Under the pieces are notes generated by a model. It worked only from the letters and a program-made list of their open reading frames with translations, had not been told where the DNA came from and searched no databases. Made by a program: the position numbers and the translations under genes. Shown here in pieces: positions 856 through 26,820 of a stretch of DNA of 64,000 nucleotides. Within the stretch, counting starts at the first letter, position 1; each line of letters begins with the position of its first letter. This stretch comes from Cenococcum geophilum (Eukaryota). The DNA is taken from positions 11,346,001 to 11,410,000 of the forward strand of contig CP158635.1 of NCBI GenBank assembly GCA_050273025.1. Direction: 5' to 3'.

Positions 856-3800
856 CTGATCAGTAAGCGCGCACAGATCAGCAATTACTTAACACCTCCC
901 CCTAAGCGATACACACGACAGCGACCACCCGTTTAGACTCCTAGTACGACCTGCTAGAAGGTCGGAAGTTGGGGATTACGGACTTATCTCCAACTCTATA
1001 TACTTATTTAAGTCTTAGTACAGTTTACTAGAAGTTATAGACGCGAATATAGACCTATACAGAACCCCTATCCTTAACCCCCTTAAACCTTAAACCTCTT
1101 TAGACCTTTTACGGAAACTTCCTACCCTCCTACGAACTATTATGGACCCGTTAATTGATTTTACAGACTGTTATAAGACCTCCCCCACCCGTTATAAGCT
1201 GCTACTACCCGCTACGCACTATATTACACTATAGTATGGTAGATATTAGTAAGCAAGTCAGCGAAGGTTAAAAGAAGTGGAGATAAGGCGTTGACGTTAC
1301 GTCTATAAACGATGTTAACGACTATATTAGCTTTAAAATCCTTAAATATAAATACTTTAAGCTTATAAATAACGACCTGTGGGAGTAATATAAGGAAGAC
1401 TTTACGGACTTTACGGAAGCTATTTTTAAGGCTTACAACCCTACTGCCATCCGTAACCTACGAACCCTTTTATGTCACCAAGGCGTATAGGTTAAAAGGG
1501 ATAAACAAGTCACTGTTACACGGTCTCTATATAATATACTACGTAAGGAGGACCAAACGGAATAGATTAAAGAGCAGATCTTAGATTATATTAAAACCAG
1601 CGACCTCTTTACCTTCTTTAAACTTAATAGAATCTCTAGCCTTATAGCTAACCTATTTAACCGAATTCGTTCCACAAACCTAAGTGGCATTAGAATTAAT
1701 CTTACTGGCTAAAGTATACTTAATACTTAAGTTACGGACTATAATACCCCCGTAACCCAAATTACGGACCGTAATACCCCTATAAACCAAAATACGGACT
1801 AAATTACCCCTATTGTTTAAGTTATAGATCCGCAAGCCATATATCTATAAGCCACAGATCCGCAAGTTATAGATCCGCAATCTACCTAAGTAAAGACCTA
1901 CGGTAAGGAGCTAGCTAACCTAGCTAAGCTCTATACCGACGAATCTAAGTATAGTAGTAAAAACGATAACTTTAACTTTAAACTTACTATCTTTACGGAC
2001 CTCTGTCGGAAGGCTAATATTCTTAAACAGGAATTCAGCCAAGCCTACTCCACTATACTACGCGGCCTAGCACTTAACTACTACTACACTAACCTTAAGA
2101 GCAACCCCCTTGGTGTTCCCTTTAATAAGCTATACGAAGCTACATGTAACTACTTTAAAGGACCGGAATATAAGCGTAATATTCTTACCTAATGGAATGC
2201 GACCAAGCTACGGACCGTAATCGACAAGAATACTAAAAAATCGACTATAGAGTGCCTGTAAATTCTCATTAAAGACCTTCGGCACCTATAGCACGGCCTT
2301 AATACCAAGCTTTAAACAGACGACTTCCTATATAATAAACTTATTACAGCCTGCTAGGAAGTAGAGCCCTACAAGTACGCCTACTATAAGCCTACAGATA
2401 CCTTAGCTGGCCTTATTAATAACTTACGCTCCTTTATTGTAACGTATAAAGTCTTAAACCCACTAGGCAGCACTTAAGCCTTTGTTGCGGATATTTAATA
2501 TCCGCAAATAGACTTAGACGTCTACTTTACGGACCGCCGCTACCGCTAGCAGCACCTATACCGACCAAGTCCTACCCGTAACCCCTATAGCAACCCCCGT
2601 ATAAAAATATACCCCCGTAAATAAACTAGCTAGAAGTGCTTTATGTGCGGTAAGGAAGGATATTGGTCTATAAGGTATACCCAGGAAGAACGTAATAAGT
2701 CTAGGAAGAGACTTAATAGCCGTATTAACTAGTTTATTTTGGAATACAAAGGAGAGGAAGTAGAAGAGCCCCCTAATAAGTTAATAGAAGCCCTTATAAT
2801 TGACTTTAACTTAGACGCTTAAGAATAAGAGACCTTAGAGATATTCTTAACTACTTTTGGACCTTTTACGGACAGCTAAGCCTTTAATATTACGACCGTA
2901 TTAGCCGACCGTTCCTTTATACACTTAGTTGCGCCCAAAAACCATTCCGTAAGTACCCCTGTTATAGATATTACAGATTATAAGCAGGACCTATTTGCAT
3001 ATATTACTATAGAACGCTATACCCCTAAGGAATTCTATAGTGTTATAATCGACATAAGTACCTCTAAGAAGTCTACTGTAGGCTACGGACAATACCTTGT
3101 ATATAGGACCACCACAAATAATAATACGGATATTAATATTACGCAAACTAGGGCCGTAAACGTCTAATTTGGCATCGGCTTAACCGCATTAATTGGATTA
3201 GTTAAAGTTAAGACTCTAATTGGCCTAGTTAACTTCCACGTAGTAAAAGCGGACACCCCCTTCCTACTCTGTCTTGCAGACATGGATAGGTTATAGGTGT
3301 ACTACAATAATATTACGGATACCCTAATTGGCCCCGCAACTGCCCTAGGAAGTAAGTATATTACCCTGCTAATTATACGACGATTTGGACACCCGTTCCT
3401 TATATAGGGAGAGACTTTATAGACCTATATTTAGGAATCTTTTGACTATAACCCGTGCTACCTTACCAGTACGGAGATCTACCGCCTATACCGCTGTTTC
3501 GGCCACCTGTTAGCCGAAAAGCTGTATAGAGTCCTTAAACGCTCTGGATATGACAACGTTAATAGGAAGGCAATTAACCACCTAACTAAATACTGCTCCT
3601 TCTGCTAGAAATACGGACGTTCCCCAGGCTGATTTAAGTTTACCCTTTATAAGGACCTTAACTTTAACCACTTAGTATATGTGGACATTATATATATTAA
3701 CGGTAGTCTAGTATTATATATAATCGATAAGGCAACCCGCTATTAAGCCGCCTGTTGGTTGTAAAATATATCTATAAAATACACTTGGGATATTTTACGG

Positions 3801-6682
3801 ACCTGCTGGATCGACATATACGTTGGACCTCCGCAGTATATCACCTACGACGCTAGTAGGAACTTTATTAGCAAGGAATTCCAGCAGTATGCTATGGCTA
3901 TGGCTATATTAATAAAAGCTGTTCTAGTTAAGGCGCACTAGTCCGTTAGGCTTGTTAAGTAAGCTTACCTAGCCTTATAGAGAGCTTACTAGATCATTAT
4001 AGACGAGTGTAAGGACATCTAAAAGGAACTGGCTTTATAGATGGCCGTAAAGGCTATTAACGACACCGCTGGCCCCGACGGACTAGTACCCACCCTCTTG
4101 GTTTATGGAGCCTACCTAAGGATAAGTAACCTAGGCCCTCCTGCCCCGTCTATTATGGAACAAGCAGCTGTAATATGGAAGGCAATAACTAAAATAGTTA
4201 AGCTACGGGCTAAGTAAGCTATTAATAACGCCCTGTACTACCGTAATGGACCTAACACGACCCTAGTATACAACCTCCCGCTTAACTCTAAAGTCCTTAT
4301 ATGGCGTAAAAGCGGCAGTTGGAATGGACCTTATTGTCTACTAGCCGTAGAAAATGAGACGTGCTGCGTATAGCTTCCTAATGGGCCAACTAGCTTCAGA
4401 AGCACGTCTATAAAACCCTACTTTCGGCCTAAAAACACCCATAATGTTAAACTAGACGAACTAGAAGCACCCGTTAAACTAGACGAACCGGAAGCACCCG
4501 CCGAATTAAACGAATTAGAAGCACCCTTGCCTACCCTAAAAGTCCCCTAGAAACCCACTAAACCTACTAAACCTACTATAAAGCGTGGTTAAGGACGCCC
4601 CTAAAAGCACTCCGTAACCAAGAACACCGTAATAGAAAATCACCTAACCTCCGCAGAAATATCCGCAAGGCAATCTCCGCCTGTGGATATATTAGTTCTA
4701 GTATAGGAAACCCCATTTACGGACTTACGACGTAAAGAGATTAACGGACTACTTAAAAAGGGTGTCTTTGCGGTTATAATAGAGAAAGACGTCCTATAAG
4801 GCATCCGTATATTTAACTTATACTTTATTAACGAGATTAAGCACCCTAGTACTAATAAAGCCTTTAAGAAATTAAGGCTTGTTGTACAAGCTTATAATAA
4901 TAAGGGAAAGGACTTAGTCCTTACGTAATTGCCTATAATTTAATAAGTTAGCCAATGAATTATACTTGCACTTGCGCTAGGACTACAGTAAACTAAACCC
5001 GTAGCCCTATACTTATAGGACATCTCACAAGCCTATATGCAGTCCAATACCTACCTAAGTAGGGACATCTTTATACGACTACCCCGTGAGCTTAACCTAT
5101 AACTAGGAATAATTTTATAGGTTATAAAACCTCTTTACAGAGTACCAGAAGCTAGGAACCACTGGTTTAAGACGTACCACTAGTATTACGTTAGTAAGCT
5201 TAAAATAAAACAGTCGACCTACAACCCCTACCTCCTATACAGCCCATCGAACGGCTTTGGTATTGTTGGACTTTAAATAGATAATACCCTATTCCTAGTA
5301 GACTAGACCTTTACGGACGTTAAAGAAACTGAACTATAAAAGGCCAAGTTCTTGGCAAAGCTGTGAGAGTAGTTAACTAAGTAGAATCCGATTAAGTTTA
5401 ATAGAGGCTTAATTATATAAAAGGGTAACCTAATTAAGCTAACTTAGGAACGCCAAGCTTAAAACCTAAAGCTTGTTATAGTAAAGCCTACGGACCTTAC
5501 TAGTTCCCGCAGAGAGACCTATAAGACCGTAAATATAAAGGACTAATACGCTGCATAGCGTGCAAGAGGCGCCTATATTACCACAGTCTGCTAACCCAAA
5601 TCTGCCTATAACTTGTCCTTTGCGGCCCAGGCAGTAGATCCGCAAGAAGAAAATATTAAGCAGCTTAATAAGCGCATTTAGTGGCAAATTGATAATGCAG
5701 TAAGGGGACTTACTTTTATACCACTAGACCTGAATTCCCTTAGCCTACTGGCATTTACGAACGCCTCCTTTACTAATAATAAAGACCTATTATTACAAAT
5801 TGGCTTTATAATTATACTTATGGACCGCAATTAGGACGCAAATATACTATACTAGTCTTTAATTAAGTGCAAATGAGTAACCCGTAGTGTACTAGCTTCT
5901 AAACTATATACACTAGCTTATGGATTTAATATAGCAACTGCAATTAAATTAACGGTCCAGAAGATTTTATAACTGGAGTAGTTACCCCTGGTTTTATGTA
6001 CTAATTTAAAGTCCCTTTACGACTGCCTAGTTAAACTAGGTACGACATAAGAGAAGAGGCTTATGGTCGACCTAATATGCTTACGTTAGGCCTACAAACA
6101 ACATGAGATTATAGAGGTTAAATAGATTAGTAGCGGAGACAACCTAGTGGACGCTATAACTAAGGCAAAGCCGTATTAAGCCCTTAAAACCCTAATTAAC
6201 ACAAATAAGCTCAACCTAAAAGTTATAAAATGGGTAGAACGGGACTAACGGAGCACCTACGGTATGTCTACGGCCCGTTGGAAGGCCGTACAGCTCGTTA
6301 TACGGTACAGGTAGAAAACGGTAGAAAGCTACGGTGGAACTTGGTGGACTTACATAACCTGCCGAATTTTATAGGGTGGTTGAATTAACTAATTACGATT
6401 TTCCATTCCCGGGATGGAAAATCGCTATTAGTTTGCTTAGCACTAGCGCCTTAGCGGCCCTTAAAATCTAACTTATGGCTCGTCTACTGCCCGTTAAAAG
6501 GCCGTACGGTTTATTTTACGGACCGTAAGCAGAACTTACGGCCAGCTTGGGGCACCGTTTGGAAGGCAGCCTAAACGGCACCTTAGGGAGATTTCCTATA
6601 TATTTTCCTTTGTGTTCTATAGTTTTATTAAAGCAATTACGGAGGCTATACACAGGTGGTTTTATTTTTTAAGTACTGCTAG

Positions 6683-6950
6683 TGTATAATTACAGCACCT
6701 GTTATACTAAACGCGTGCTTACGCGTTCGGTACACCAGGTACGCGTTTACGCGTTCAGTGCACCAACCACTCGCTTACGCGTCTGGTGCACTTATAAAGC
6801 ACTAACTAATTAGGGGGGAGGTGTATTAGTATATAGACCACGTAGTCTGCTTTATATAATTAACAGTCACCATCCAAACAAGTATACGATACTACATGTA
6901 TTTCGTGCCCGTGGATACGACTCACTCGTGCTATTAAGTTAGTACGAACA
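6683..6950 (+). repeat. Copia 3' LTR
   Basis: tgtataattacagc...gtacgaaca; the differences from the 5' LTR that I compared are C/T and G/A transitions. Confidence 0.95.
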
Positions 6951-7200
6951 GTTGGATAATTATAACAATTTAGACGATAATAAGGAGCTTAGACAATACC
7001 TAAGGGCAGGCTTTTTTAAGAGAGGGGGGTAATATAACTATGCTAGGGCGCGAGGCAGATAAGGCAGATAAGGCAGATAAGGTAGGTAAGGTAGGTAAGG
7101 TGGATGAGGTGGTTAAATATATATAGTAATAGTGTTATTAGTTTCTAGTGCCTTGGATATATTTAGATAAACATTAAAGATTCAATTATATCACCTATGT
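6951..7200 (+). mobile_element. Remainder of the interrupted Gypsy: pol end, polypurine tract and 3' LTR (right end approximate)
   Basis: ctaagggcaggcttttttaagagaggggggtaa then tataac (RIPped tgtaac) at ~7033. Same PPT context as the Gypsy at 48121-48152. Confidence 0.7.
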
Positions 7201-7399
7201 AGGATTTTTAATCCTAATACTATATTCCTTTTTTATATATTTAATTCTGATATAATTTATAGGATTAAAAAAATAATACTGTTTAACAACTTCTTTAATC
7301 TCGTTTGAGATCGAACAAATATAATAGAAGTCTTAATATTAATATTTCGCTATTAGCTATTAAATCTTTCTCTTCCTTTAATCCTCCGCTTAATCTTAT

Positions 7400-8960
7400 A
7401 ATATTATTATACTCCCCCCGCAAACATTAATACGTTACACTTAGACGGCTTCTGCGAACTCTATAAGGTTATAAATATCTTAAACTATAAAAATCTCACG
7501 CTTATATTGTATATAAAAGGTAAGGGCGGCACAGTAAACAGATTAATACTTACGTTAGAGGTGTATAGGGAGAGAAAGAACCCTATACGTTACTTAAGAC
7601 CCCACTTTACTAATCCCAAGGGCCTTCTTAACGCAATGGCCGAGAGTAACGCGTATATATTAGGTTCTCGCGCTATAGACTACTTCGTACCTAGCTCTGC
7701 TAAGTTATATTCTAATTTTAACTTCTATATCCAAGCAGATATTAAAGGCATTTTTAAAATGCTTAGTAAGATAAAGTTAAGCCATAGCGTATAGTGGACC
7801 TCTCTAATATAGTCGCTAGTCCGAAAATTAAGCTTCCGAAAATTTAAGATAGACGTAAGAGTGTTGCAACACATATTTAAGTCTAAAGAATTTAATGCCC
7901 TAATAGAAAAGTATCCTTAAAAAAAGGTTTATTCCATAAAATACAGCGAGGGCCTAGATATATCCGCTAGGTATACCTTTAATAGAACCGCGTTTTTATT
8001 TAACTAAGATATATCTAGTTAAAACAATTATTGGGATAGAGATATAGATAAAATGGACTTACCTAATCCTATCTATAAGACTACGGAAGATAAGGAGTAT
8101 AACGCTTACATTTAGTTACGGCAGTTCTTCGCCGATCTTTATCATTATTAATATAACTATGACCTACGAGGATTATATAAGACGATCTGGGTCTTATATA
8201 ATAGGAAGGGATTATAGCATCTAGGGACGTTACTAACCTTTTCCTTTTAGCACGAAAATAACTATAATAGGCTAGACAAATACGACCGAGGCAGCGAAAT
8301 ACTCGAGGTAATTAAAGGAAAGAGCGTAAAGAGTAGGGTTCGTATACAATTAATGTTTAATACAGCCGTCCCTTAGTTAACTCCTTTTTATAACATCCTC
8401 TAATTCTATTTAAGTTAAGTTTAATATTTTATTTCTAGGCTTAGAGCGGTACATTTATACCCTAAACCCTCCCAGCGGAAGGAGGTATATACTTAGTTAT
8501 ATAGAGTAGAGACCCTACGTGTCTAGGCGGCTAGAAAGAAGTATAAAGTTTAAGGATATTAATATATAAAAAATTAGGCGGCGCTAGAACTCCGCAGAAT
8601 AGGGGATAATAAATCCTTATTTATACCATTTCCGCAAAGAGAGGGATAGTCGGCTAAAACACTAAAGTAGTTCCGGGATAATTTGCAGGTTATAGCTTAG
8701 TAGTAAAAGGAGACCTAGCTTAATCCTCTACTAGGATTATATTAGATACTCCTAAAAAACCGTTAAAGGGTAGACATTAAGGCCACATAGTAGAATACTA
8801 AAAATTTGGGATATACATATAATAGCCAATATCTCCTTTAGCAATTCTATACTAACTATTTTAATAAATATAGCATCTTACCTAAGCTCGGTATTATAGA
8901 CTCCTATATCCAAGCTAAGTATTATAGAGGGTAGTAGTTATAGGGCCTTAAGTATCCCTA
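7400..8960 (+). pseudogene. RIP-degraded gene with pol-beta nucleotidyltransferase-like motif
   Basis: 7657-7730 reads ILGSRAIDYFVPSSAKLYSNFNFYI, de-RIP ISGSRA.DYFVP......SDFDFY (hGS..DhD pattern). Later IQLM, VHLY, KY..GY and RRIGD..SLFIPF in the same degenerate ORF. Confidence 0.5.
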
Positions 8961-9484
8961 AAGCTACTATAGTATACTAGCAGTTAAACCGCTATAGTTA
9001 AGTCACAAATTAAGTATTGGCCGAGGGTTAATCACTATTTAATTAATAATAAATTAGGGGTATTTTAATATAGATCTTAGTGTATATTATAAGAGTATAA
9101 AGCCTCTTATAATTCGATAGAGTTCTTATTCTTAATCTTCTATTTAATATTAAAATATTAGAGCTTAGGTATATTCTTTTTTAAGTTTTTATATATAGTT
9201 ACACGGGACAATATTTAAATTATCTTGTAAAGCCTGCTATACCTTATATAGATTAATACTAATTATTATATATATCTATATACTTAGAGACTCCTAAGTT
9301 AAACTAGATAGTTATATTATACTAAAGTAAGACGGTAATAAAACAAGTCCGATTTAGGTCGACAATATATAAATCGCCTTAAGCAGCTCTAGAATTAAAC
9401 TTCGATTAATTTAAGGCATTCTACCTAGGAGCATATAGAATTTTTTTTAAAAGAACGCGGAATTCATAGTAAATTATAAAAAGA

Positions 9485-10575
9485 GATACGCTAGGTGGTT
9501 ATATAAGCTAGATAATCGTACAAACTAGGTAATTATATAAGCTAAATAGACAAGCGTAGCGCCCTCTAAACATATAGCTAGGATTTTAACGGATTTAGTG
9601 GCTGCGGCTTTAGTCCTATAAGCTAGGCGCTTATAGGAGCTAGGGGATCCTACGAGCTAGGTAATCGTATAAGTAGGGTAATCTAACCTAGCGCCTTCTA
9701 ATTAACGCCTAGCGTGCAAATAGAATATTAATAGGTTTAGTAACTCCGCGGCTTTAATCCTATAAGCTAGGCAATCCTATAAGCTGGGTAATCGTATAAG
9801 CTAGGTAATCGTATAAGCTAGGTAATTATATAAGCTAGATACTTATAGGAGCTAAATGCTTATAAAAGCTAGGTAATCTTACGAGCTAGGTAATCTTATA
9901 AGCTAGGTAATCTTATAAGCTAGGGGATCTTACAAGCTAGGTAATCTTGCGAGCTAGGTAATCTTATAAGCTAGGTAATCTTATAAGCTAGGGGATCTTA
10001 CGAGCTAGGGGATCTTACGAGCTAGGTAATTCCATAAGCTAAGTAATCTTGCGAGCTAGGTAATCCTATAAGTTAAGTGATTTTGCGAGCTAGGTAATCC
10101 TATAAGCTAGGTAATCCTATAAGCTAGGTAATTCTACAAGCTAGGTAATTCTACAAGCTAGGTAATCTTATAAGCTAGGTAATCCTACAAGCTAGGTAAT
10201 TATGCAAGCTAGGTAATTGTACAAACTAGGTACTTATAGGAGCCGGCCGATCCTACAAGCTAGGCAATTGTGTAAGCTAGGTGCTCGTAGGAGCTAGCTA
10301 ATCCTATAAACTAGGTGGTTATATAAGCTAAGTGCTTATAGGAGCTAGGCGCTTATAGGAGATTGTAAGAGCTAGGTAATTATAATCTAGTACCCTTTAT
10401 TAACGCTTAGCTGTAAGCTAGTCAATTCTATAAGCTAGGTAATCGCACAAGCTAGGCAATTATACGAGCTAGGTAATAGCAGGGTCTAAGTATAAGCCTA
10501 TCTTACTGCCTTTATAAAGTTAAAAATAACCACTAGTAAATTATGCGAGCTAGGTAATCCTATAAACTAGCTAAA
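9485..10575 (+). repeat. ~1.1-kb degenerate 17-bp minisatellite (consensus ~gctaggtaatcttataa)
   Basis: e.g. 9902-9952 gctaggtaatcttataa|gctaggggatcttacaa|gctaggtaatcttgcga; dozens of units with short interruptions. Confidence 0.9.
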
Positions 10576-10619
10576 AGGTATAAAGAGATTTAATACTAGC
10601 TAATTCCTCTATAACCTAT

Positions 10620-13520
10620 AATTATAGCAAATATATTATAGGATAAAGCTATTTCTAAAGACCTACAAAAACACTTTCTCGGCACGGTAAAGATTGCTCT
10701 ACAGTATCTAAAATTTCACGGGCCTAAGGAAGAGTATCTTAATCTAAACCATATCTCTTATTTAGAAAAAGTTTTTAAATAGGATTGCGCTTGACTTGAT
10801 CTAGGGAATTACATCCCTGCGATTATCGACCCTATAAAATTCGATATATTAGTCCAAAAATCTAGTACTAGAAAACACCTACTAAAACTACTTCACTAAA
10901 AACTACTAAGGCTCCCTATATAGAACAACACGTCTTTACTTTACTTATATAGCAGGTATTATATTACGGTAGCTTAGAATATGCTCTTCTTAGAGGATAG
11001 ATAGTGGTATACTAACCTATATTTATTGGGTTTATTTACAGCTTTATTTACAGTTAATTAATCTAATAAGGATAGGTATATCTAAGCGAACGGGGATATA
11101 TATTTAAGAAAGGTACTTATACGCTCAAAAAGCTACTAACGGCGAAGTATACTAACTAGTCCGCTTCTATCAATCTTATAGGGATACGTTAGGCGAATAG
11201 AGATGGCTCCTTTAACTAAGTAATAATAAGTAGGGTAAAGTTATAAACCGGATCCAACAACCTAAACATAAATGGTTAGGCTATATAATAGATACGCTAT
11301 TACTATATATAGGGTTATAGGGGGACCTTAAACTTAGATATTTTCCTATAATATAGAGTTAGAAGTGCCTAAAGGTTTACTTCCTACAATTAAGATTTTT
11401 TAGTATATTACTTACAAATAATAGGAAATCTGCTACTATATCGGGCATATATAGTAAGTTTAGAAGTTTATTACCAATAATAATAAGTTAATACTACCTT
11501 TTCTTAACGGGGGTACGGTCTAGAGCCTATAATCCCTTACGCCATTAGCGTATTCTAACAACAAAAATCTAGTAATAACATTAGTAAACACTAGTTAGGT
11601 TTTTCCTAATATACTAAATTCGCTACACCCAAAGGTCCTAACTTAGTTACTTAAGGTACTAGGCATAATCCCAACATTTAAAACATTCTTTAAAGATTTA
11701 AAGTATCTTAAACCCGTAATAATAATCTTAAGGGGAATACTACCGCTAAACCATAAAGATTCTATAAGAGAGATAATTACGCGTTGCTATATAGGGTTAT
11801 TAGAGCACAACAGTTATTATTTAGTTCAATTTAGTCTAAATAGAAAGCGTTATATACTAAACACCCCAGGATTACTTATCCGCTATCGTTAACTCTACTT
11901 ATACTTACTATAATATTTTCCTAGCATAACTAATATATCTCCATTAATAGACAGAAGAAGTAAGAAGGATAATATTAAAAGCGGTAAAAAGAGCAATAAC
12001 TCCGCTAGAAAGAGGGCTTAGTATAAATTCGCAAGGCTAGCTAGTAATCTTAGGTTTAAGTTAAAGCCTATTAAGGAACTTCTAGGGGAAGACCCTAATA
12101 AAGCAGAAATCTGGGTTTCCCTTTGTAATCGGCGACCTAAAGAATTATATAAAATCAGTAACGAGGATTTTAAATTAAAGGTAGACCGCTAACTAAAAGT
12201 GCTTTATACTAAATTTAAGCGGCAAATACTCCTAGACCCTACTCTTACTCTAAGCGTTGATTTTAGTAGTAAGCCTATTAATTATAGATGCGGTAAACCG
12301 CTATAGGCTTCCCATATCTCTAATAAGAATCTTTTATTCCTACCTATATTATATAGTGTAGATAATACAGTTAGTCCGAAAGCTATGCTTACATCGTTCG
12401 CAGTTAAACGATTTATTTTCTTCTGCTTTTTTAGGTAGAGGGATATAAACGATTCCGACCTTTAGACAAAAGAGATATAAGCACCTGCATCGGAAGTGCC
12501 TAAGAGTGCTCATTTAGCTGGCCATAAGCAGCAGCAGGGCCACGAGCAGCAGCAGAGCCACGAGCAGCAGCAGAGCCACGAGCAGCAGCAGAGCCACGAG
12601 CAGCAGCAGAGCCACAAGCAGCAGCAGAGCCACGAGTAGCAGCAGAGCCACGAGCAGCAGCAGAGCCACGAGCAGCAGCAGAGCTACGAGCAGCAGCAGA
12701 GCTACGAGCAGCAGCAGAGCTACGAGCAGTAGCAGGGGAGTAATGAGTAAAGTCAAATGGGTTACCTTATGGTCTGGCTGCCTCCTAAAACTGCTATAAC
12801 AACTACTTAAAGCGCCCTTTTTACTATCAAATCTCTATTTAATAAATGCAGGATTATAAATTAGGTTGCTTTTTTTTAAATTATAACCTTAAAATATAGC
12901 AGGGTAGGGAACAATAGCTCCGCTATAAAAAATATAGCTTCCGAAATTATAGACGGATATTTTAACAATAACTTTATTAGAGCGCCTTAGAAATTTGGAT
13001 ACGTTATTACAGACTCTCTATAGTTAATAGATATTATAGATGTTTATAATAGAGCTAATTTAATAAACATGAATTTTCTATAGGTTATTTTTATTCTAAA
13101 CAAAGGATCTAAGTCACTAGATACACGGTTTCTTAGAAAGCCTTTTTCTTAATATATAGATCTATTTCACGGTGGCAAGGCTATAAAATAAAAAGCACTA
13201 AAGGACCAGCTACTAACTCCTAACAATTCTATAAAAAGCATAAGACTTATCTAATAAGAAATCCAGCCTACGCTACCCCCTAAAACGCAAACTAGGCCCA
13301 AACTTCGCCCGTCTAACAAAGATATAGACGAAATTTAGTAAGTGCGAATTCCTCAAATTAGGACGTGGCAAGGGGAAAGCCGACTTTTATATCCATAGAG
13401 AAATATTACATTGCTAGAAATTTAAGTTAAGGATTTTAGTATAAGCGCTTAATTTTATCTAATTATTAACCTAAAGGGATTAAAGAATATATAACGTCGG
13501 CTTAAGTATTATATTAGGAT
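10620..13520 (+). pseudogene. DUF3723 family protein (Starship accessory gene), RIP-degraded
   Basis: FLGTVKIAL; LDLGNYIPAIID; LLYLYSRYYI.VA..EDR*WYTNLY (de-RIP LLCLHGRHRI..DRWW..DLY); IPTFKTFFKDLKYL; TSFAVKRFIFFCFF. Confidence 0.8.
12521..12738 (+). repeat. 18-bp tandem repeat (~12 units) encoding HEQQQS in the DUF3723 frame
   Basis: gccacgagcagcagcaga units; in frame after TSFAVKRFIFFCFF...APASEVPKSAHLAG. Confidence 0.9.
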
Positions 13521-14199
13521 AGAGGCGTAAGCATAATAGGTTTACTAACATTGCTATCTTCTTAGAAGTTTACTATAACTTCACACTTATATTGTCTTTA
13601 CTACTAGTTTATATTTACTAATCTCCCAGTTAGTAAACCTTATAGCGTCGCTCTATTAAACTTTTAACAACTACTACGGCTATTTAGTAGAAGGGGTTTA
13701 TAGCTCTACTCTCTACCTAGCTAGATATAAGAATTGGGATCTATAATTAGCCGATTAACCAAAATTACACGATTCTAATTCTTCTTCCTTAATCGTCTTA
13801 AAAACGCACACCTCTTTATATAAGTTTATGGCGGATAAGGCCTTATAAAGTATTTTATGCAATATATAGAGAATTTAAGCTTAGTAAGCATTATATTAGA
13901 ATTTTAATCCTCTTTATTATAGTCTAGGGATATAGCTAAGTAAGTTAGTAGCAGAAAGGTAATAGCTAGCTAATTAATTATGCCATTAGAAAAGAGTAAC
14001 TAAAGACGCACGTAGTAACATAAAACAGAAAAATTCCATTTAGCCTAAAGATTAGCTTTTGTCCTAGAACCCATTTCTACTAATATAATTACCTATCCGT
14101 ATAATAAGTGGTTGAAACTCTATAGGAATTATAATAAGTAGTTAATAACCTATAAGGGATAACTCTAAAAACTTATAGCCGACATAACGTACGCAGACA

Positions 14200-17100
14200 C
14201 TTAGTATTTATCTTTACTCCTTTTTATCGGAAAGAAGAATAAAAAATAAGCACTAAGAGCTCTCTTTCCTGTAATTAACCATAAACGGCGTAGCGTTTAA
14301 GGTATAATTAGGCTAAATATTAACCTAACTACCGCAGGCGCTAAAAATCTAATGCTCTTCGCCGAGGCTAATCTAGAAAATCTTCCTATTAAACTTAGTA
14401 AAACGGCAGACTACTATTATAAGACTAAGCGGTATAGGCTTAACTAGGTCAGCGACTAATATCCTAAGCCTAAAACTAAAGATGTGGTTAATAGGATCTA
14501 CTCGCTATTACTTCTCCCCTTTACTAATATCCTTTGCCTTTTCGTAGAGGATTTCTTAAGTTTAGAAGAGGTTTTAAATCTTCTTTATAGATAGGCAGAA
14601 CGAGGCCAGGAATTGGTAATAAGTTGACTATATATTATTATTATCGTTATATAAACAGTTAACTCTGCGGACTTTATTAAGAGCCTACTAAATATATTAA
14701 AATCCTTCTCTAGCGTAACAATTATAGCCTTACTAGATACTATGGAAGTATTACTAACTACACGCTACTTTTCACTTAAAGATGCTCTACTACAAGAGGC
14801 TGACTATACTTAACGAGCAAAAATTACTAAGCAGGTACTATTCTCCGCAACTTACCTTTAAGTATTTTTCTATAAAGCGTTGATTTATTTTACTATAACT
14901 ATAAGTCTACCTTTTAGTTTCTTCCGTGCGTCTAGGGAAGAAAATAACATTAATAATCAGTTTTCTGCCCACCTAGGCTTATTCCTATAACTCTATTACC
15001 AGCATAAAGTCTCCCTTAATAACGCCGCTATATATATTGCCTTAGCTATTCTTATAAATAGTTCTCCCCCTAAAATACATTATAAGATTTTAAGACCCTT
15101 AATTCCTACTAGTTACTAAATATATAAGGTTTTTATCCTAGAGCCCTTTTTCGAACTCTTTATTACAATTACTGCCAAGCAGTATATCTTAAACAGCATT
15201 ATCTTTAGCACCCGTTAGCTTATAACTAGTGTCGCTTAATAAAGGATAATCTTATAACTATACTATCTAATTTAGATATAGATAACATCCCTTCTTCTTA
15301 GCTATACTAGCAGAATCTATAGGAACTTAAATAGAGTATTCCCTAACTAAAGTTAAATAGAACTTACCTATTCTGCCTTCGCAGAAAACCAAAATATATA
15401 CTTATTTATAGACATTTAATATATAATATTTACGTCTATAGATACGGCACGCCGATATAAGGCATTAAATATCACTTTAAAGTCTCTAAGTGTATATTAT
15501 ACCAATCTAAAGGGCCGCTAGGAGTAAAGCTTCTTCTACTAACTACTGGTACTTATTTACTAGCGATTAACGGAGGCGGCGTCTAAGGAAAGCTATTACT
15601 GCTAATACTAAGAAATCTAGAGCAAGTTTAGGACCTCCTATATCCCCTCTAGGATGATTTCAACTTCGCTCTAAGTACTAGTTTAGGTAGGGTTTAATTA
15701 TACGATAATATAAAATGAACTAACTTCTATAGGAGGCCTTACTATTCTCCAGCTTTTCCAGATACGATAGAGTATCCAAAATTGCATTTTTATATTTAAG
15801 ACGCTAGCTAAACGAGTTTTCGCTATACAGCGTCTTGCTAGGCTTTTACTATACTTTCGTATAATTTTATTTTTAGGTTCTTAGCTTACTAAAAGCCGTT
15901 CTAAGATTGCCAAACTTAAGTTCTGTCTTAAAGATGCATTCGGAATAAATAACTAGCTATTCAATATAGTAAAGTTTAGAACATCCGGTATAAAAGTTAC
16001 TATAACAGCCATAATAATATCTAAGGGCGCGCTATACATATTATCGAATTATAATGGCGTATTAGAACGTCAAAAAGATTGCAGTAAATTTAACCTAAGC
16101 CATTTAAACTCTATCCTAATATACAGCTAGGTTATAAGCATGTTAAATCAACTAATCCTTATAATAAAGTATTAATATAGTAAGCGTAAGTTTCAATTAT
16201 CTTATTTATATATATAGACTAACAATTTATAGTATATAAGCTACGTCTACTATACCCACATACGTTTAATATACTCTTACTTACTCTGTTAAAGTTCTAA
16301 TAGATTTATCTAGTATCTTTCTAGCTAAGTTTATCCCTATTATCGGTTTTATTTAAGATAGGGGTATTAAAAAGTATAACAACCCTATAGATCTAATCTA
16401 TTAGGAAAGTCGTATTGCCTTTAACGCAGACCCTAATCTAACCATATCTATTAGTTTAGGGTTTACTCAACAGCCTAGTTCCCCTAGAGCCCCGTCTACA
16501 TAATATAGTTTTTAGAATAATCCTATACCTCGGCTCCTAAGGTCGTTTAGGACTATACTAGTAGCTTAGAATAACTACGTTAAGCATTTAAATTAACTTA
16601 AGTCACTATTAGTGGATAAGGAAGCTCTAGGAAGCTACTTCCGGATTAATATACCCTTTAAATACTAGCCCACACTAGACGAGATAGGTAAGATAGCAGA
16701 TCTTTAAAGGGAAACGCATCTATATCTTTAGTTATAATAACATATCCTTCTAGCCATTAAATAAGCACTACGGTCGGCCTCTTTCTTCTTTAAATTAAGC
16801 GAGATGCCAAGCTTTTAAGGGCGTTAGTACGAATGTCATGGATCTATACATTGTTAGAGTCTAAATGCCTAAGCGCTAGTCTGCGATTTGGTACAAAAAT
16901 TCCCGTCTACCCAGTTCTTAACTAATTAAAACACTAACTTAAGTAATCTAAATGAGGGTAATCTATATATAGATTATGGAATCTATAATAAGGCCGTTAG
17001 ATTCCCCGTCTATTACCTTAGTCAGAAACTAACTATATACTTATAATTAAATCAGTTATACCGCCAAAAGATTAGTAGCTTTCCTAATTTAATTACTTAG

Positions 17101-17230
17101 TTTATTAAGCAATAGAGACTTAATGCCAACTTTAGCGAACCTGGCCATTCTAACCCTAAGGAAGTCTTTTATTATAAGTGCGACTACTCTATCCTAAGTA
17201 TTCCGACGCGAAAGAGGCTATTAGTATACT
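14200..17230 (+). pseudogene. Patatin-like phospholipase (Starship plp-type), RIP-degraded
   Basis: LLAINGGGV*G (DGGGxRG, ~15556-15590); FALSTSL|GGL across an intron (GTSSGG, ~15670-15740); LSNYNG; *DRG...NNP (QDGG..NNP, ~16355); C-terminal KISSFPN...FSEPGH. Confidence 0.85.
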
Positions 17231-17419
17231 TTAATAGAGACTTTTGTAAAAAACATCATCAAAGTATCTTTACTTAGTTAATATTATTTGCCTTTACAAG
17301 ACAAGGCCAAAATGTTATATTTTTATCAAAAGGCGAGGTCATATATAGATATTAAATTTACTATTTTTAAATTCTCTATAAAGCTTTAATAGTAACTTAT
17401 CTCTTACCCATTACCTAAT

Positions 17420-17570
17420 TTATCCCTAGTATTATCCCCGGTATTATACCCTATATCATTCCCTACATTATACCCTACATTATCCCTTACATTATCCCCT
17501 ACATTATCCCAGTAGTACTACCCACCTACTTTACCTATCTACTTTACCCACTAACTTTACCCATCTACGC
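17420..17570. repeat. Short tandem repeats (~13-bp attatcccctac-type and ctactttacc-type units)
   Basis: Visible tandem iterations. Confidence 0.6.
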
Positions 17571-19466
17571 CTTACTAAGAGTAGTAGGTTAGATTATCTA
17601 TAGGTAGTTCTTAGGTCATAAATAACTTACCAGAATTATAAGATTTATTTTAATACTTATAGATATAAGTATTACAACTTATAACCGTAGTAGTATTTAA
17701 TTTTTAGGTACTTATAACTCTACCTTAATCTCCTAAGTAATCCTTATATTGTAACGAAGAACTTTGCTATATTCTTATATCTAAATTATAAACACGGCTG
17801 CCGAGGCCGTAGTAATTCTCTTAATATCCCTTGCGATAACTATATTATCCTTTATATATAACAAAAAGGCCTAACGCAAACCACTTCACTAGTTACGGTT
17901 TTAATAACCTTAGTAACTTTAACGGCTTCAGCAAATCTAACTACTTTAACCTCTTTAGCAGCATCTAATACTTCGCGCACAACTTATTCAGCAATGAATT
18001 CGGCCTTTACTACACTAGCTTTAGATATTTAGGAGTAAGTAACTTAATAACCCTATTAATACTATATTAATATAGGATAACTAATAAATATTTAAGTCTT
18101 AATGTTAACGGAGAAGAAGGGAGTAAGACAAATTTATAGGGCATTTAAATAAATAGCCTTTAAGATTTAATTAGGGCTATCTTTAGAATATATAGTAGTA
18201 GTTAAATAATACCAGTAGTATTTCTTGCCTTAACATTATAAACCAACTAGAATTTAGCTGCACTATATTTAAAATAGTTCTAAGCTTACTACTATCTTAT
18301 ATTCTATATCCTATAAATTAACGCGAAAATAAAGCTGGAAATTTAATACCTAAGAGAATAGTGTTAAAATCTCAATAAATCAAAGATACCTTTTACGGTT
18401 ATCTCCTATAGCTAGCTAGGATTCACCGTAATTCTTTAATTTATACCTACTTTTGGCTTCTTAAGCGCACAAATATAAACATGTTTAGATATCCTTATTA
18501 TACCGCTAGAGCTTAGCTAGAGATACAGCACTCTCCTATTTTTATTCTCTAGTACCCTCTCTAGTACCCTCTCTAGTACCCTCTATTATCTATCTTACTA
18601 AGATAAATATATTTTTTAGATAAACGCCTAACTTCTTAGGGTTAATATTATTAGGTTCCCCTCTTCCTCTTCCGGCGGACTATATAATTCCCATTATAGC
18701 GCCAAGATTCCGCATAGTGAGGTATAATTCCCCGTTGTTTATTTTCTTATAGTAGCTGTTTCCTAAATCGCTAATATCTTTCTTAGCCAGATCATTATAG
18801 TCTACTAGCAATTCTTAAGGTATATTTATAGATAAGATAAGCCTATAGATTGGGGCCTTTTCTAAGCCGTATTTAATTAGGTATTGTTTAGTTAAACTAT
18901 ATTTAGTTAAACTAAATAGTCGCCAGCCTTTAATAGCTATATCTATTTTATCCTCTTCTAGTAATTAGTTTTGCATTTCTTTAGTAAAGGCTATACTAAG
19001 TCTAACTAATAGTAAGATATAGATAAATTCGTGTGTATAGTTTAGGCTTTATATAAGTAGAGACCGCCTTTTTTTTAGCACCTATTACTTTTAAAACTTA
19101 ATAGCTGTAAGAAAATGCCTACCTCCTTACTCTAACCTTAAATGGAAACTCGTTACCTTTTTCTAATTATAAAAGTTGTATCCTTTAGCCAAATACGAGT
19201 AAATAGTTCTAGAAACGTTAACTAAGAAAGAACAATAATGATAGAAACAGAGCAGTGGTATTAAGGTATGAGTCATTTTTCTAGATAAATACAATTTTAT
19301 TTAAAACTATAAAAGATTATTACTACAAATAGACATATTCTAAGCCTGTGTAATAACTATAATTTATAACCCTTTAGCAGTCTAAGCGAGATAGGTCACC
19401 CCTAGTATTACTTAGATACTAGGACTTGCAAATAATCAAAATAGGAGACTTATTCGTCATCGTAAT

Positions 19467-20150
19467 TGCTATACCCCTTACTACTCCCTACCCTTTTAAT
19501 TACCTCATTAGCTAGCTTCTCTAGCGTCTCTACTTACTTCACCCTATATTTCTAATAAGTAAACTATATATTGGCCTACCTAAAATATCCCTTTGGACAA
19601 TAAACTACTAACTTCCTATCCTTTATATACTCGCTAAGCTTTAGTAAGGATATCGGCGATATAGTATTTGGATTAAAGAATATAGTAATTACTGTGGCGC
19701 GCTCTAAGCCGTTAAACTCCCATTTGATTTGCCTCTATACTTCTCCATTAAGTTTATCTTACGGTAAAGAACTATCCTAGTCGTTACGCCGTGGGTTTAG
19801 AACTATAATTCTATACGGCTTAAGAAGCTCTATAATATCCTTTTGCCATTCTATTACTTTACCACTTTTAATACTACCAACAAGGAAGATAGATTTTCCA
19901 ATAATAGCACGTATAGACGGTATGGTTAGTAGCTAATAGACGATGAAGTTAGGGTGCTTATCCATAACAATAGGTTTAGCGGATTTTTTAGTAGGAGTTA
20001 TAATGCTTGGGGCGGTAGGCGTAGAGTCGGCAGGAATTCTAATAGGACTTAAAACAATCGGGATCGCAGCTAGTTCGGCGGGGATTTTAATAGGAGTTAT
20101 AGCGATTAAGGGCGTAGTAATAGACCAGAAGTTTAGGGATAACTCGGATA
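19467..20150 (-). pseudogene. Nucleoside 2-deoxyribosyltransferase-like protein (Nuc_deoxyri_tr2-type) with Pro-rich N-terminus, RIP-degraded
   Basis: SIFLVGSIKSGKVIEWQ..IVLNPRRND*DSS..QIKWEFNGLERATVI.IFFNPNTISPISLLKL...KLVVYCPKGYFR*ANI. Confidence 0.85.
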
Positions 20151-23100
20151 TAAGGCAAATTTACAAAAGATAACTTAGATAAGAGTCTTACCTATTAGTT
20201 CTATATAAAACAAAATAGTTTATAATAGTTTCTTCTATAAGAGCGTAGTGTACTTACTTTATAGGCCTCTTCTTAGTAAGGAGATATGGAAATCTACCTT
20301 GAAATAAAAGGCTTAGATGCTAAAGTCGGCCTAAAAAAGAGAGAGTTTTAAAACGCGAGGCACTCTAGGCCCCATATATTTCTCCTATATACTTAAAAAA
20401 GTGGCGTAAATCTAACTACTACTATAGCCCTATAACTATAGACCTTATACTAATCTACTTAGTCTATTATCCCCTTAATCTACCTAATCTATACCTAGTT
20501 ACCTATCTAATCTACCTAATCCACCTAATCCACCTAATCCACCTATCCCTACTAATATCTTATATAACGGCTAAGATATCCTATTAAACCCTAGATATAA
20601 AAGTTACCTTATATACTTCTATTAGCTACTAATATTTTTTAAACTTTATCTACGCAAATCCGATTACTACCTACTACTATATATAGAGCTGCTAAACTGC
20701 GCTAAATTCTTAAAAAACTAAAGTAAGGCATATTCCTTAGCTTACGGCTAAATTAACTAATAGACATAGCCATAAACTCCTCATTAGAGTGGCCATGTCA
20801 ACGACCCGTAAAAATAACCATTATAGCGCATCGCTACCCGCCCTTACTATTATTAAGATTATTCTTATAATTTTAAACAGCCTTATAATTATAATGCAGT
20901 TAAATAGTATCTAGTAAAGGTATAAGCCTAGGGAAAAGCGGGTAAATACTAAGCAAGGTATAGCAGACCTAAAATAACTCCTTTTTATACCGCATTTCAC
21001 TTAAGAAAAGGCTTATTTACGTTTTAATTTTTAGGCTCCTCTTAACACATAAGTAATAGGGTATTTATTATATATAGAACTCCTATAGCAAATGGATTTT
21101 TTATAGTAAATCCTATACAGATGCCTATATAATATTTTGCTCCAGTTTAAGACCGGTATTTTTAGATAAATAGTAAAAATATCATTTTAAGATATAAAGC
21201 ATTACATCTATTTATATATTAAATGGTAATATAACCTCTCCTTCCCTTATTCCCCTCTAGTAATCTTTTTTGACCGGAGTGAAGTGGATTTAAGCTTAAA
21301 TTTACTCCACTTATAGTTTAACTTATTCTTAAACAGGATTAATACTTACCTATTAAGGCTAGTAGTCTAGTCCACTCTACTCTACTTTAACTTTAACCCA
21401 GTCTAAAAAGATCACTATAAATACGATCTGCTATTGCTGCCTAATATAGTCCATTTACTAGCTTCTTAAGATCTAACTATTATACCTAGCTTTGCCTTAT
21501 TAAGTAGTAAAGGCTCCCTTAAAACCTATAAATAGTCCTAAGACTAGAGCGGATATATTTACTTAGACTTGGTTATATAGCCCTATATTAGCGTTTAAGG
21601 GGATATCTAACGAATTGCATTTTGTACGCAATCCAAAGTCTATAAATTTCCTCCACGTCATCCATTTACTTCTTTTCCATTATTATAACTCTATTCCACT
21701 ATCGCAGGCTTTTTATAGCCTATAACCGACTATAATATAAGGTAATATATCGTATTGCTATACCTTTAAAAGAGAAAGAGATAATAGGAATAGCTCTGTC
21801 TATATACTTTTTTAGGATATTTTTATACAGTCACATTCCTAAAGCACTTTGTTATCCCTAGGGTAGCTTAGCTAAAGTAGTTTTAGGCCAAGCCTACCTT
21901 AATAAGACTCCGCTAAGAGCGTAGGCACCTTATAGTTTAATTTAGAGGACCATATCCGTATAAAGGGGCTTATCCTACAATATATTTATATCTTAGGGCT
22001 ACCTATACCAAATCGTATTAGATCTCTTTTTGTAGCTTAAAAGCTAATAAGTCTGCCTTAGCTCTAGGAGATTTTAGGTCTATATTGCCTTTACTCTTAT
22101 TAAAGAAATACGGGCAGAATATAACATCTAGCTACAGTTAGGGCCGCAGTAAGTACATATCCTATATCTTTAGGCTATTTTAGGACATACTTACGTAATT
22201 TAAACGCCTCTAAGACCTATAATCTTCAGCCCTATACTACTTAACCTAGAATATATATATCCTGCTACGGATATCTACTTCTAGATATTACACTTACCCT
22301 CTAACTGCTCCCTATATAGCCCTAGCCCCTAAACTATATAGCTAGAGTCTCTTAGCTATGGAACCCTCTAAGCTTTTAATCTACGCACCTCTAGCAACTT
22401 CGTAACTTCTAGTCTACGCTTTCTTTTTAAAACACAGCCTCTAAACCCTAAAGTTTCTAACACTTAAGATAGATGCCATTGCGGATAATACTAGCCTAGT
22501 TTAAACTATAACCCCTTAGTCTGGTATAGCAGCGTATAATAAAGTGGTATATATTTACCTCATACCTAATAGTCCTAAAGCCCCTAGGACTTTTACCGCA
22601 GTGCCCATTAATAAGTCCAATTTAGAATCCGTTATTAAAGTCTAAAAGAAAAAGAAAACCATTTATAGAGTCTTCTCGCTCTGCATTCCGGGCGATAAGC
22701 TAGCACTTCTTATTAAATATACCTTTTAAGGGAATACAGCCGAGTACGTTAACGCCCTATAAATATTTTTATAATATTCTCTCTAATATATAGCAAAAGA
22801 AATCCAGATATACTTTATATCCTCTTAAAGCAATAGAATAATAACCAAAATTTTAACCAACTCTTAGCGGTCCAAATTCCAAAGGGACTTTATAATTAGC
22901 TGATTATAAAAGCTTATCAATTATTAGCACTTTAGTTAGATAGCTCTATATATAAACAACGTATTATATTCTATACCCAAAGCGAGAATATAAGCGTAGA
23001 ATTTTTCTATACAGATATAAAGATCTATACTAAGTCTGGTAAGTATCTAGAGATTTAGACTATACCTAAACTAAATAATAATATCGTGCCAAATCTGGAG

Positions 23101-23255: not shown

Positions 23256-23458
23256 TGTTACAGTACTAGCAGAAAACGGTAGATTGCGGCAGATTGCGGT
23301 TACGTAACTAAAGGATTGTATAAAACTTCAAGCGGCGCTACTATTCTTCTCCTTTCCTTTCTCTAGCTTTAGATCCTCATTAATAGACAATCTAATTATA
23401 TAGGCTTACGTACGTCCTTCCTACTATACTCATACCTTAATTAACTAAGTCGCTAGCA
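23256..23458 (+). mobile_element. Solo Gypsy LTR related to the LTRs at 42482/48153
   Basis: tgttacagtact...aagtcgctagca; shares cttctcctttcctttctctagctttagatcctc. Flanks AAGTA/GAGCA are consistent with a RIP-altered 5-bp TSD. Confidence 0.85.
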
Positions 23459-25699: not shown

Positions 25700-26820
25700 C
25701 CTATCTACTACCATCTTCTTAACAATTGGCCAAGTTATAACTCTATAATTACTTATCCAACTTAAAATCTTCTTAAGTATAATCTATTTATTATACTACC
25801 CCTATCTAAAAGCATATAGCAGATATATAGCACTAAAATCCATCTCCTAGTCCTTCCGCGTTCTTTAGTTCTTAATAATAGTGTTATAGTAGATAATAGG
25901 ATCCGTTAAATTAGTAGTAATAGGCTTAGGAGATGCGGTACCGTGTATCCTAAAGAGGGCGTCCTTACTATCCTAGAACTAGTATATTGGCGCAAATACG
26001 TTCCGGTCTAAGATAAGGACTTTATTTAGAATACTAATAAGGCGCCCAGTAATTTGTATTAGTAGTTATAAATTAAATTCCTAGGCGCCGTTAAACATAG
26101 CTATCTACTTACGCACTATAAGTCTTATTAAGGCGCTATTCGGCTTTATTAAGAAAACTCTATTATTAATCATACCGTTAATAGTGCCGTCCTTCTCTGC
26201 GCCGCTATACTGTTGTCTAGCAATAAAGGTAAACCCTGCGTTCTATAGTAGAGTTAGGGACTTAAGCGGCATAACGTCCTAGTCTATATAGATGCCGCCA
26301 ATCTTAAAGACCTCTTCCTAGCGTAGCACGTCTAACTTATACTAGATAGCTTTAATAGGCTTTATTATATTAGGGCCTATAAACTATAGAACCTAGACGT
26401 AGTTAATTTGGAGAAGGTTTAGGAAGGTAGTAAAGACCTTACAAGTCTATATATTCCCTATTTCGATAGCGGACTTAATCTTAGTTTAGTTATAGTTAGT
26501 ATAGAGGTAAATCTTAGATAGCTTAATATATATAACTAAGGCGTATAGGGATAGAAAGTACGTAAAGTGTATATTAATTATAGAATCTAAATCCCTCTTA
26601 ATATATATATAGTAGACGATACTAGGAATATACCTATATATAGTAAGATACTATATTACGGCATCCTTAGCGGAAGGGTATAGGAAGGAGGCTAGAGAGA
26701 GAAGAATAAGGATAGGGACGCTAATTTTAACAAATATCTATAACTAGGAGTAGAGGAATAGTGGAATAAGGTTAAGGGGAGCGTATCCTTTCTTGCGGTA
26801 GAAGGGGTTAAAAAATTATA
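25700..26820 (-). pseudogene. Glycosyltransferase family 32 (DxD sugar-binding), RIP-degraded
   Basis: N-terminal hydrophobic segment; IPSIVYYIY (IPNIVHY); YKLDVLR*EEVFKIGGIYID*DV (HKSD..R...GGIY.DWDV); INNRVFL; ILDRNVFAP. Confidence 0.85.

Follow-up and report, generated by a model that had tools for sequence, protein, structure and literature searches.

A class II-like nucleotidyltransferase pseudogene in a RIP-degraded block of probable Starship-type cargo in Cenococcum geophilum

DUF3723 and patatin-like phospholipase (PLP) genes are named Starship-associated genes (PMC9156397, PMC11162782, PMC10104507), and at least three auxiliary hits (DUF3723, PLP, FRE, NLR) define a degraded Starship (PMC9156397). 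These papers are cited here for parts of their texts and supplements, and the comparison of published regions covers two parts of table S13 of PMC9156397 and four rows of table S7 of PMC11162782. DUF3723 and PLP adjoin head-to-head in four of the table S13 regions; the region polfus1 h57 contains a nucleoside 2-deoxyribosyltransferase (NDT) gene, an unannotated gene and then a PLP gene convergent to these, and DUF3723. The PLP genes of published Starships are about 3 kb long. Fungal patatin domains are also found in the PLP-1-type NLRs, composed of patatin, NB-ARC and TPR (PMC12881547, PMC6737239), and the patatin domain is reported to be needed for PLP-1 cell death (PMC12881547). CBASS is another system in which a pol-beta-fold nucleotidyltransferase (NTase) gene accompanies a patatin gene; its CD-NTases are marked by the SMODS (PF18144) or a related profile (PMC10732462). 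The pol-beta superfamily as a whole is described by motif A, hG(G/S)X(9-13)Dh(D/E)h, on an alpha/beta core (bioRxiv 10.1101/2023.12.02.569716, part of the text).

The window, i.e., the whole analysed stretch of 64,000 bp of Cenococcum geophilum contig CP158635.1, contains a block with the following features (window coordinates):

7276-8934, plus strand: gene 1, pseudogene of a pol-beta nucleotidyltransferase, from ungapped alignment to the homologue P0002 and the L008 ORF
9755-10316, no strand: tandem array with a 17-bp unit, about 33 copies, separating gene 1 from DUF3723
10660-13150, plus strand: DUF3723 pseudogene, a Starship auxiliary gene, from Pfam PF12520; ends approximate
14085-17350, plus strand: putative pseudogene of a patatin-like phospholipase of the Starship PLP type, from degraded motifs, stop depletion and weak profiles; ends approximate
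18449-19048, minus strand: ORF X, a probable degraded ORF of unassigned family with few stops, co-oriented with the NDT-like gene
19462-20150, minus strand: NDT-like (PF15891) pseudogene, from a Pfam match, the translation, and the ATG and stops

The places and orientations of the four degraded genes agree with the preliminary description, three of them lying on the plus strand and the NDT-like gene on the minus strand. The cluster is looser than was claimed there; about 5 kb separate gene 1 from the patatin gene, because the tandem array and DUF3723 sit between them, and the probable fifth ORF X lies between the patatin and NDT-like genes. Degenerate copies of the 17-bp repeat reach over about 9450-10570, and in other sequencing runs some joints leave out or repeat segments of the array. 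A copia-like LTR element, with LTR copies at 576-855 and 6671-6950, flanks the block.

The Pfam search firmly identified DUF3723 (PF12520, E-value 1.4e-49, 169.6 bits where the cut-off is 22, best stretch 11425-12396); the gene carries an 18-bp repeat at 12527-12735, and its 3′ end was set by eye from translations. The gene at 14085-17350 is probably a PLP, judging by degraded motifs and weak profile matches. The motifs described earlier as DGGG, GTSSG and DGG are not literally present and read NGGG (15569-15580), STSLG (15674-15688) and DRG (16357-16365). The predicted gene, about 3.3 kb and multi-domain, has a long N-terminal region, a patatin domain that starts after about 490 codons and is split among frames, and a C-terminal extension, and it is depleted of stops. 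PADLOC phospholipase profiles matched with E-values of 0.009-0.017, and a degraded 87-aa piece scored 13.7 bits with NCBIfam CBASS_lipase (NF041079), whose cut-off is 200. Neither the Pfam search of the degraded sequence for Patatin, nor the profile search of solved-structure sequences with the patatin piece, nor the word-indexed protein search with the degraded N-terminal frame gave a meaningful match, and an intact PLP was never recovered. The likeness to PLP-1-type NLRs is confined to the fungal patatin domain, with no NB-ARC or TPR detected in the window gene, a weak difference in a sequence so degraded. The NDT-like gene has a full-length match to Nuc_deoxyri_tr2 (PF15891) above the gathering score of 30 (E-value 5.5e-22, 78.5 bits, profile positions 2-105 of 105); the domain occupies about 19585-19896, and an in-frame ATG is located at 19965. 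ORF X is weakly marked by 9 stops in 200 codons, compared to 12-27 in other frames, and has no Pfam match; in position, it matches the unannotated gene of polfus1 h57.

Every 1-kb bin between 1 and 50 kb has a RIP composite index of 0.4-1.7; at 50-56 kb the index is negative. Between 6900 and 21500, each of the four DNA runs covers all 30 bins with many variant contigs whose differences go in both RIP directions, which characterises the block as repeated, RIP-susceptible mobile DNA. RIP has inactivated the block, which appears to be a dead fragment of a repeated cargo element of Starship type in an ascomycete genome; it presumably makes no working protein today, because in-frame stops occur in every gene and the catalytic motifs are changed. 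Like Starships and the degraded 'Derelict' regions in the published tables, it combines adjacent DUF3723 and PLP genes with RIP degradation and a nearby remnant of a glycosyltransferase (PF04488, under the cut-off); as in polfus1 h57, an NDT-like passenger is the second gene beyond the 3′ end of the PLP. Unlike the four published head-to-head pairs, the DUF3723/PLP pair of the window is tandem, and the captain, FRE gene and element ends of published Starships were not found in the parts scanned. For the captain (DUF3435), there was no Pfam match in six frames of 20.2-35.1 kb, while 35.1-42.5 kb was scanned by eye only and 576-6950 is the LTR element; these blanks weigh little because Pfam is insensitive on RIPped DNA and misses even the degraded patatin. 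As the scanned parts yielded no captain, we infer the Starship label from the cargo, and this cargo is the part of the proposed 'Starship accessory cluster' that stood. An ankyrin-like remnant was noticed by eye near 37 kb.

Gene 1 was killed by RIP; it is the pseudogene of a pol-beta nucleotidyltransferase, class II-like (CCA/PAP-head), from a fungal / giant-virus (Gad2-like) family. It aligns without gaps to intact homologues with 67% identity, both over 430 aa and over 547 aa (7288-8928). Compared to the intact L008 copy, for which no RNA dataset is listed, 302 of 395 substitutions are C>T/G>A, and 167 of these are in CpA context. The 552 codons of its reading frame contain 32 stops, 31 of them TAA or TAG, while the five other frames have 44-68. 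The start was placed by offset from P0002, and the conserved Met maps to 7324. The GS..DxD motif noted earlier exists in the intact homologues; in the window, GS is found at 7663-7668, the DxD site reads NxN at 7714-7722 (GS...SNFNF), and the conserved Gln is at 8347.

The family numbers 344 homologues at E≤0.001; the word-indexed protein searches with gene 1 gave P0002 as the sole match. Intact copies are represented by P0002, P0008 and P0009. An alignment of 128 homologues demonstrates the conservation of G130 (126), S131 (126), D147 (120), D149 (122) and Q358 (117), so that the acidic residues anticipated for intact copies are there. Motif A and the alpha/beta core of the pol-beta superfamily are recognisable from this alignment and from the fold matches, with a GS-DxD spacer of 15 residues versus the quoted 9-13. 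No homologue has D or E at position 358 and 117 of 128 have Gln; this position may correspond to the third-acid strand, with Gln in place of the expected third carboxylate, a placement drawn from secondary structure and the Pandoravirus parallel and not from residue-level superposition. The class II motifs B (RRD) and C (EDxxR) are absent from the family consensus, which has FHSSxVQC and KYxxRG instead, and FHSS probably stands where RRD would be.

The nucleotidyltransferase fold suspected earlier was borne out by two separate models. In the wide structure search, the top 9 of 48,161 chains were CCA/A-adding or PAP heads and TENT5B; the best match had Z 9.5, rmsd 5.3 and 169 aligned residues for the first model, and Z 9.3, rmsd 5.1 and 176 aligned for the second. 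The chain 4wby_A (Z 9.0, rmsd 3.6, 158 aligned) displays the class II head-domain fold common to the family; the Z values are mostly 6-9.5, near the search tool's own middling range. The P0002 model contains a low-confidence insertion of about 160 aa. Foldseek found nothing in the PDB at E≤0.001, with weak rows including MNT antitoxins, GLD-2 and TUTases, and the profile search of solved-structure sequences with the family gave no meaningful match; the BFVD structure search yielded 63 matches at E≤0.001, mostly giant-virus proteins.

Gene 1 belongs to a large fungal, class II-like family, structurally allied to giant-virus F-box/BTB proteins, with phage Gad2 as a lead. The giant-virus BTB/F-box NTases (Pandoravirus cluster 7) resemble it in the intact motif A, the conserved Gln with the third carboxylate absent, the replaced RRD and, in some members, an N-terminal adaptor-like region, beside the BFVD matches; the same Gln-for-third-acid pattern is described for the Pandoravirus BTB-NTase in the part cited of bioRxiv 10.1101/2023.12.02.569716. 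The structural matches share merely 8-18% sequence identity, and gene 1, unlike its giant-virus and phage counterparts (Gad2: bioRxiv 10.1101/2023.05.01.538930, part of the text; PF26128), is fungal and dead here. In the ESM Atlas, a Gad2-labelled cluster, 34% of which is Gad2, scored 0.91 at rank 20 with 158 of 256 features in common. The Pfam scan of 102 members had no Gad2 (PF26128) row, the model possibly being absent from that Pfam copy, and tblastn with P0060 against 50,697 phage records gave no match.

Ten independent loci of the gene 1 family have varying neighbours: DNA polB in three, GH71 in two and a zinc-finger-like + chromo ORF pair in one. Three of the ten are virus-like, and compact virus-like contigs carry this family too. 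At locus L002, the family member lies 2.2 kb after the zinc-finger-like and chromo pair, which may be the 3′ end of a captain; this remains conditional because the ESM Atlas returned weak zinc-finger leads alone for the upstream ORF, and the chromo domain may alternatively be of chromovirus origin. In a FastTree tree of 139 rows, virus-like copies fall in three separate places and the window clade sits on a long, weakly supported branch (84), and therefore the tree indicates neither a donor nor a transfer direction for gene 1. The DNA pattern of gene 1 had no matches in viral_contigs or prokaryote genome_contigs, P0002 and the L001 polB had no relatives in viral_contigs, and the literature searches found nothing on topic about fungal polB/RNAP virus-like elements.

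These data are best explained, and quite probably so, by degraded cargo of Starship type that includes a virus-type gene as an independent passenger. When alive, the element would have carried the DUF3723 + PLP pair that is standard in the published Starships consulted and, oriented toward the 3′ end of the PLP, a recurrent NDT-like passenger whose single published parallel is polfus1 h57, and gene 1 would have acted independently of the patatin. The preliminary description suggested, as a speculation, that the same genes might be a second-messenger/toxin module similar to CBASS. In such a module, gene 1 would make the messenger, the patatin would kill as its effector and the NDT-like enzyme would modulate or remove the signal, with toxin-antidote or antiviral value for the element. 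The NTase fold and conserved DxD are real, the best NCBIfam and PADLOC rows of the first patatin motif are anti-phage phospholipases, far under the cut-off, and both the single recurrence of the NDT-gene-PLP layout and the role of the patatin domain in PLP-1 cell death fit such a module. However, it was not borne out and is very improbable: no CD-NTase Pfam match, SMODS included, was obtained for any of the 102 members at E≤0.05, P0002 has no PADLOC or NCBIfam match, and the best structural matches are class II RNA-adding heads, with cGAS / CD-NTase chains absent from the best 50 of 48,161 chains in both searches, where an unlisted family is possible. The two genes are not adjacent as in CBASS, and the Starship PLP, a common Starship gene, differs from the CapV-type patatin with its 317-position profile. 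The co-occurrence expected in other elements did not appear, patatin, DUF3723 and NDT being found in none of the ten loci (tblastn; Pfam on 92 ORFs), a small sample in which six loci have at least 7.5 kb on one side or more and four have <7.5 kb on both, searched with insensitive degraded queries. PF15891 occupies only two rows of the PMC9156397 supplement. Three co-oriented genes would arise by chance in one case in four, and fungi are not known to have operons.

A transposon island in which separate repeats and captured host genes underwent RIP together could also produce such a block; the missing captain and ends in the parts scanned, the flanking copia-like element with loose contig ends at 6951-7052, and the array that parts gene 1 from the other genes point that way. 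No contig spans the block in the four DNA runs, so a single element is itself a presumption. This mosaic is nevertheless unlikely: the summed depth of variant contigs, which is not a copy number, is fairly even within each run outside the array and the first bin (e.g., 27-73 in X5), the gene set is a Starship signature, the NDT-gene-PLP order has its parallel in table S13, and the L002 zinc-finger-like and chromo domains are those reported, in the part of the literature consulted, for Enterprise captains. Still less probable is that gene 1 encoded an NTase-fold scaffold, catalytically silent or repurposed, on an F-box-like adaptor for ubiquitin-linked substrate capture. F-box-like matches in 7 of 102 members and in the L002 protein, the absent third acid and the presumed replacement of RRD by FHSS favour it, but the GS and DxD residues persist in 120-126 of 128 sequences at ~25% identity, the Pfam search gave no F-box match for P0002, and class II CCA-adding enzymes need the two motif-A carboxylates only (cited in the part of bioRxiv 10.1101/2023.12.02.569716 used here). 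For gene 1 as an independent passenger, the chemistry would rather likely be two-aspartate NMP transfer to a macromolecule, either a protein or the 3′ end of an RNA, for the element against the host; other or no catalysis is a lesser possibility, and a diffusible nucleotide signal is improbable.

As found, the block adds another RIP fossil to the record of Starship-type cargo. Starship auxiliary genes have been hypothesised to aid transfer, yet are not required in HEPHAESTUS (PMC10104507, part of the text). No literature joining Starships and nucleotidyltransferases in fungi was found, and the published regions compared name no class II-like nucleotidyltransferase among their cargo. What is gained is the identification of an unannotated cargo ORF as such an enzyme, of a family common to fungi and virus-like elements, which can be assayed because intact natural copies exist. 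Proof of a counter-defence or signalling role would be important, but goes beyond what the block demonstrates. It is conceivable, if rather doubtful, that Starship-type elements recruit a giant-virus-type (Gad2-like) NTase as a counter-defence enzyme that nucleotidylates host RNA or protein, from a gene pool common with compact 27-32 kb DNA-polB/RNA-polymerase virus-like elements; the bolder form, in which this NTase makes a nucleotide signal for the Starship patatin, is scarcely probable. If true, either form would be the first biochemical handle on Starship self-protection or spread.

The block at ~7276–20,150 contains the four genes of the preliminary description in the order and on the strands claimed there, all of them degraded: a nucleotidyltransferase (NTase) pseudogene, hereafter gene 1 (~7276–8934, + strand), followed on the same strand by a DUF3723 gene and a patatin-type phospholipase (PLP) gene, and a nucleoside deoxyribosyltransferase (NDT)-like PF15891 gene on the opposite strand. 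The catalytic motifs quoted for these genes were back-inferred and are not literally present in the window; the DxD site of gene 1 reads NxN, and NGGG, STSLG and DRG occupy the three motif sites of the patatin gene. The genes of the block were killed by RIP. Read with X at its stops, gene 1 aligns without gaps to P0002, an intact metagenomic homologue (67% over 430 aa), and 302 of the 395 substitutions between gene 1 and its intact DNA copy at metagenome locus L008 are C>T or G>A. The stretch 7400–20,150 is overlapped by just five stop-free frames of at least 80 aa. Both the DUF3723 gene and the PF15891 gene score above the Pfam cut-offs. The patatin gene shows weak matches only to phospholipase profiles and no match to Pfam Patatin, and a protein search with its degraded frame recovered no homologue; judging by motif order, size and position, it is accepted here as a putative Starship-type PLP gene, the type that its N-terminal part presumably resembles.

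The window is fungal DNA. Between 1 and 50 kb it is AT-rich, and each 1-kb bin there bears the RIP signature; ordinary genes occupy 50–56 kb, beyond the RIPped part. The following features were annotated in and around the block:

576–6950, RIPped LTR retroelement just upstream of the block (repeats 576–855 and 6671–6950, LTRs 94% identical)
~9450–10,570, 17-bp tandem array inside the block
inside the block, − strand, probable ORF X
~25,800–26,450, − strand, degraded glycosyltransferase (PF04488, E 0.0003, below cut-off)
~34,700–35,450, − strand, degraded kinase-like frame, judged by eye
~36,950–37,250, − strand, degraded ankyrin-like frame, judged by eye
42,479–48,374, second RIPped LTR retroelement (LTRs 91% identical)
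50,215–51,537, − strand, un-RIPped ankyrin plus AAA ATPase gene
53,967–56,465, + strand, un-RIPped ankyrin gene

The copia and gypsy labels of the LTR elements correspond to motifs judged by eye. An inverted related copy of the 576–6950 element lies at the right end of the window (61,000–64,000), and a piece of the same LTR as that of the 42,479–48,374 element is found at 23,325–23,458. A 330-nt repeat occurs at 40,104–40,433 and 58,451–58,929 in inverted orientation, 18 kb apart and 90% complementary, and is partly duplicated at the latter site. As to the glycosyltransferase remnant, Starships are reported to carry OCH1-type genes.

Every one of the 30 bins of 6900–21,500 is covered by contigs from four DNA runs, which differ from the window by thousands of RIP-type changes in both directions. 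This pattern is consistent with a repeated element whose copies are mutated to different degrees; joints in the runs skip or repeat parts of the 17-bp array. Because no contig in the four runs spans the whole block and summed depth does not equal copy number, we only infer that the block is one single Starship-type element. Pfam, which is weak on RIPped DNA, detected no captain at 20.2–35.1 kb.

Gene 1 has 344 homologues at E ≤ 0.001 in a full HMMER search. Of the 150 hits listed, 125 were aligned with P0002 and its two cluster mates, fragments and long forms being excluded; these 128 sequences conserve G130 and S131 (126/128 each), D147 (120/128) and D149 (122/128), and at position 358 they have Gln in 117 cases and an acidic residue in none. 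Two AlphaFold models of the family (pLDDT 72 and 78) both found, as the best nine of 48,161 chains, heads of CCA-adding, A-adding and poly(A) polymerases and TENT5B (Z-score 6.0–9.5). Matches to viral structures (6 and 63 at E ≤ 0.001) were mainly giant-virus proteins, several labelled F-box, BTB or ankyrin; in a Pandoravirus BTB-NTase, Gln is likewise described as replacing the third acid (bioRxiv 10.1101/2023.12.02.569716). In the ESM Atlas, fungal hypothetical clusters came on top, and a viral cluster at rank 20 was labelled Gad2, an anti-Gabija protein of phages that is predicted to contain a nucleotidyltransferase domain (bioRxiv 10.1101/2023.05.01.538930). Among the 102 members scanned, 7 had F-box-like matches, 23 matched DUF7277 and none matched SMODS or another CD-NTase profile. 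The fold matches and the conserved GS/DxD motif thus bear out the NTase fold proposed for gene 1, but the class of NTase points away from cGAS/DncV.

The neighbours of the gene 1 family are variable. Eleven metagenome loci match a DNA pattern built on the active-site motif; L008 is the window's own element, and the other ten are independent. Co-occurrence with patatin, DUF3723 or NDT was seen in 0 of these ten, a small sample in which six have at least 7.5 kb on one side or both: tblastn with the degraded frames of the three genes gave nothing at E ≤ 0.01, a control with degraded gene 1 detecting 8/10 loci, and Pfam found none of the three on 92 ORFs of at least 140 aa (two shorter ones included). 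Three gene-dense contigs of 27–32 kb (L001, L005 and L010) have the appearance of compact virus-like elements: all encode DNA polB, and each carries an NTase of the gene 1 family, present twice in L010. Rpb1- and Rpb2-like genes are found in L005 and L010, RNase H in L001 and L010, NADAR in L001 and, in L005, a protein that has a TFIIS-like zinc ribbon and also matches a methyltransferase weakly. A narrow literature search found no published description of such elements, the L001 polB has no relative in viral_contigs, and the window's clade is not linked with the virus-like copies in the tree. In two related loci (L006 and L007), a GH71 (alpha-1,3-glucanase family) gene stands beside the NTase. 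Locus L002 (2–5212) carries a zinc-finger-like ORF and a chromo domain, followed 2.2 kb on by an F-box-like NTase; zinc finger and chromo domains are reported on Enterprise captains (PMC11162782), and L002 is possibly, on this suggestive evidence, the 3′ end of such a captain, its first cargo gene being the NTase.

DUF3723 and PLP genes are established Starship-associated genes (PMC9156397, PMC10104507, PMC11162782, bioRxiv 2025.11.25.690456), adjacent and head-to-head in at least four regions (PMC9156397 table S13). Since PF15891 appears in two rows of the PMC9156397 supplement and at least four further rows of PMC11162782 table S7, NDT is an occasional known Starship passenger. In polfus1 h57, PF15891 faces the 3′ end of PLP at a distance of two genes, the same arrangement as in the window, and this one parallel favours some NDT–PLP linkage; in lenflu1 h42, it lies 15 kb from DUF3723, with PLP absent from the rows covered (both PMC9156397 table S13).

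The preliminary description speculated that the cluster could be a second-messenger/toxin module aiding persistence of the element. The NTase fold exists, but neither the CD-NTase class test nor co-occurrence in the small locus sample speaks for such signalling, which we consider very improbable. When intact, gene 1 would more probably have been a two-aspartate transferase adding NMP to a protein or to the end of an RNA, and may have acted independently of the patatin.
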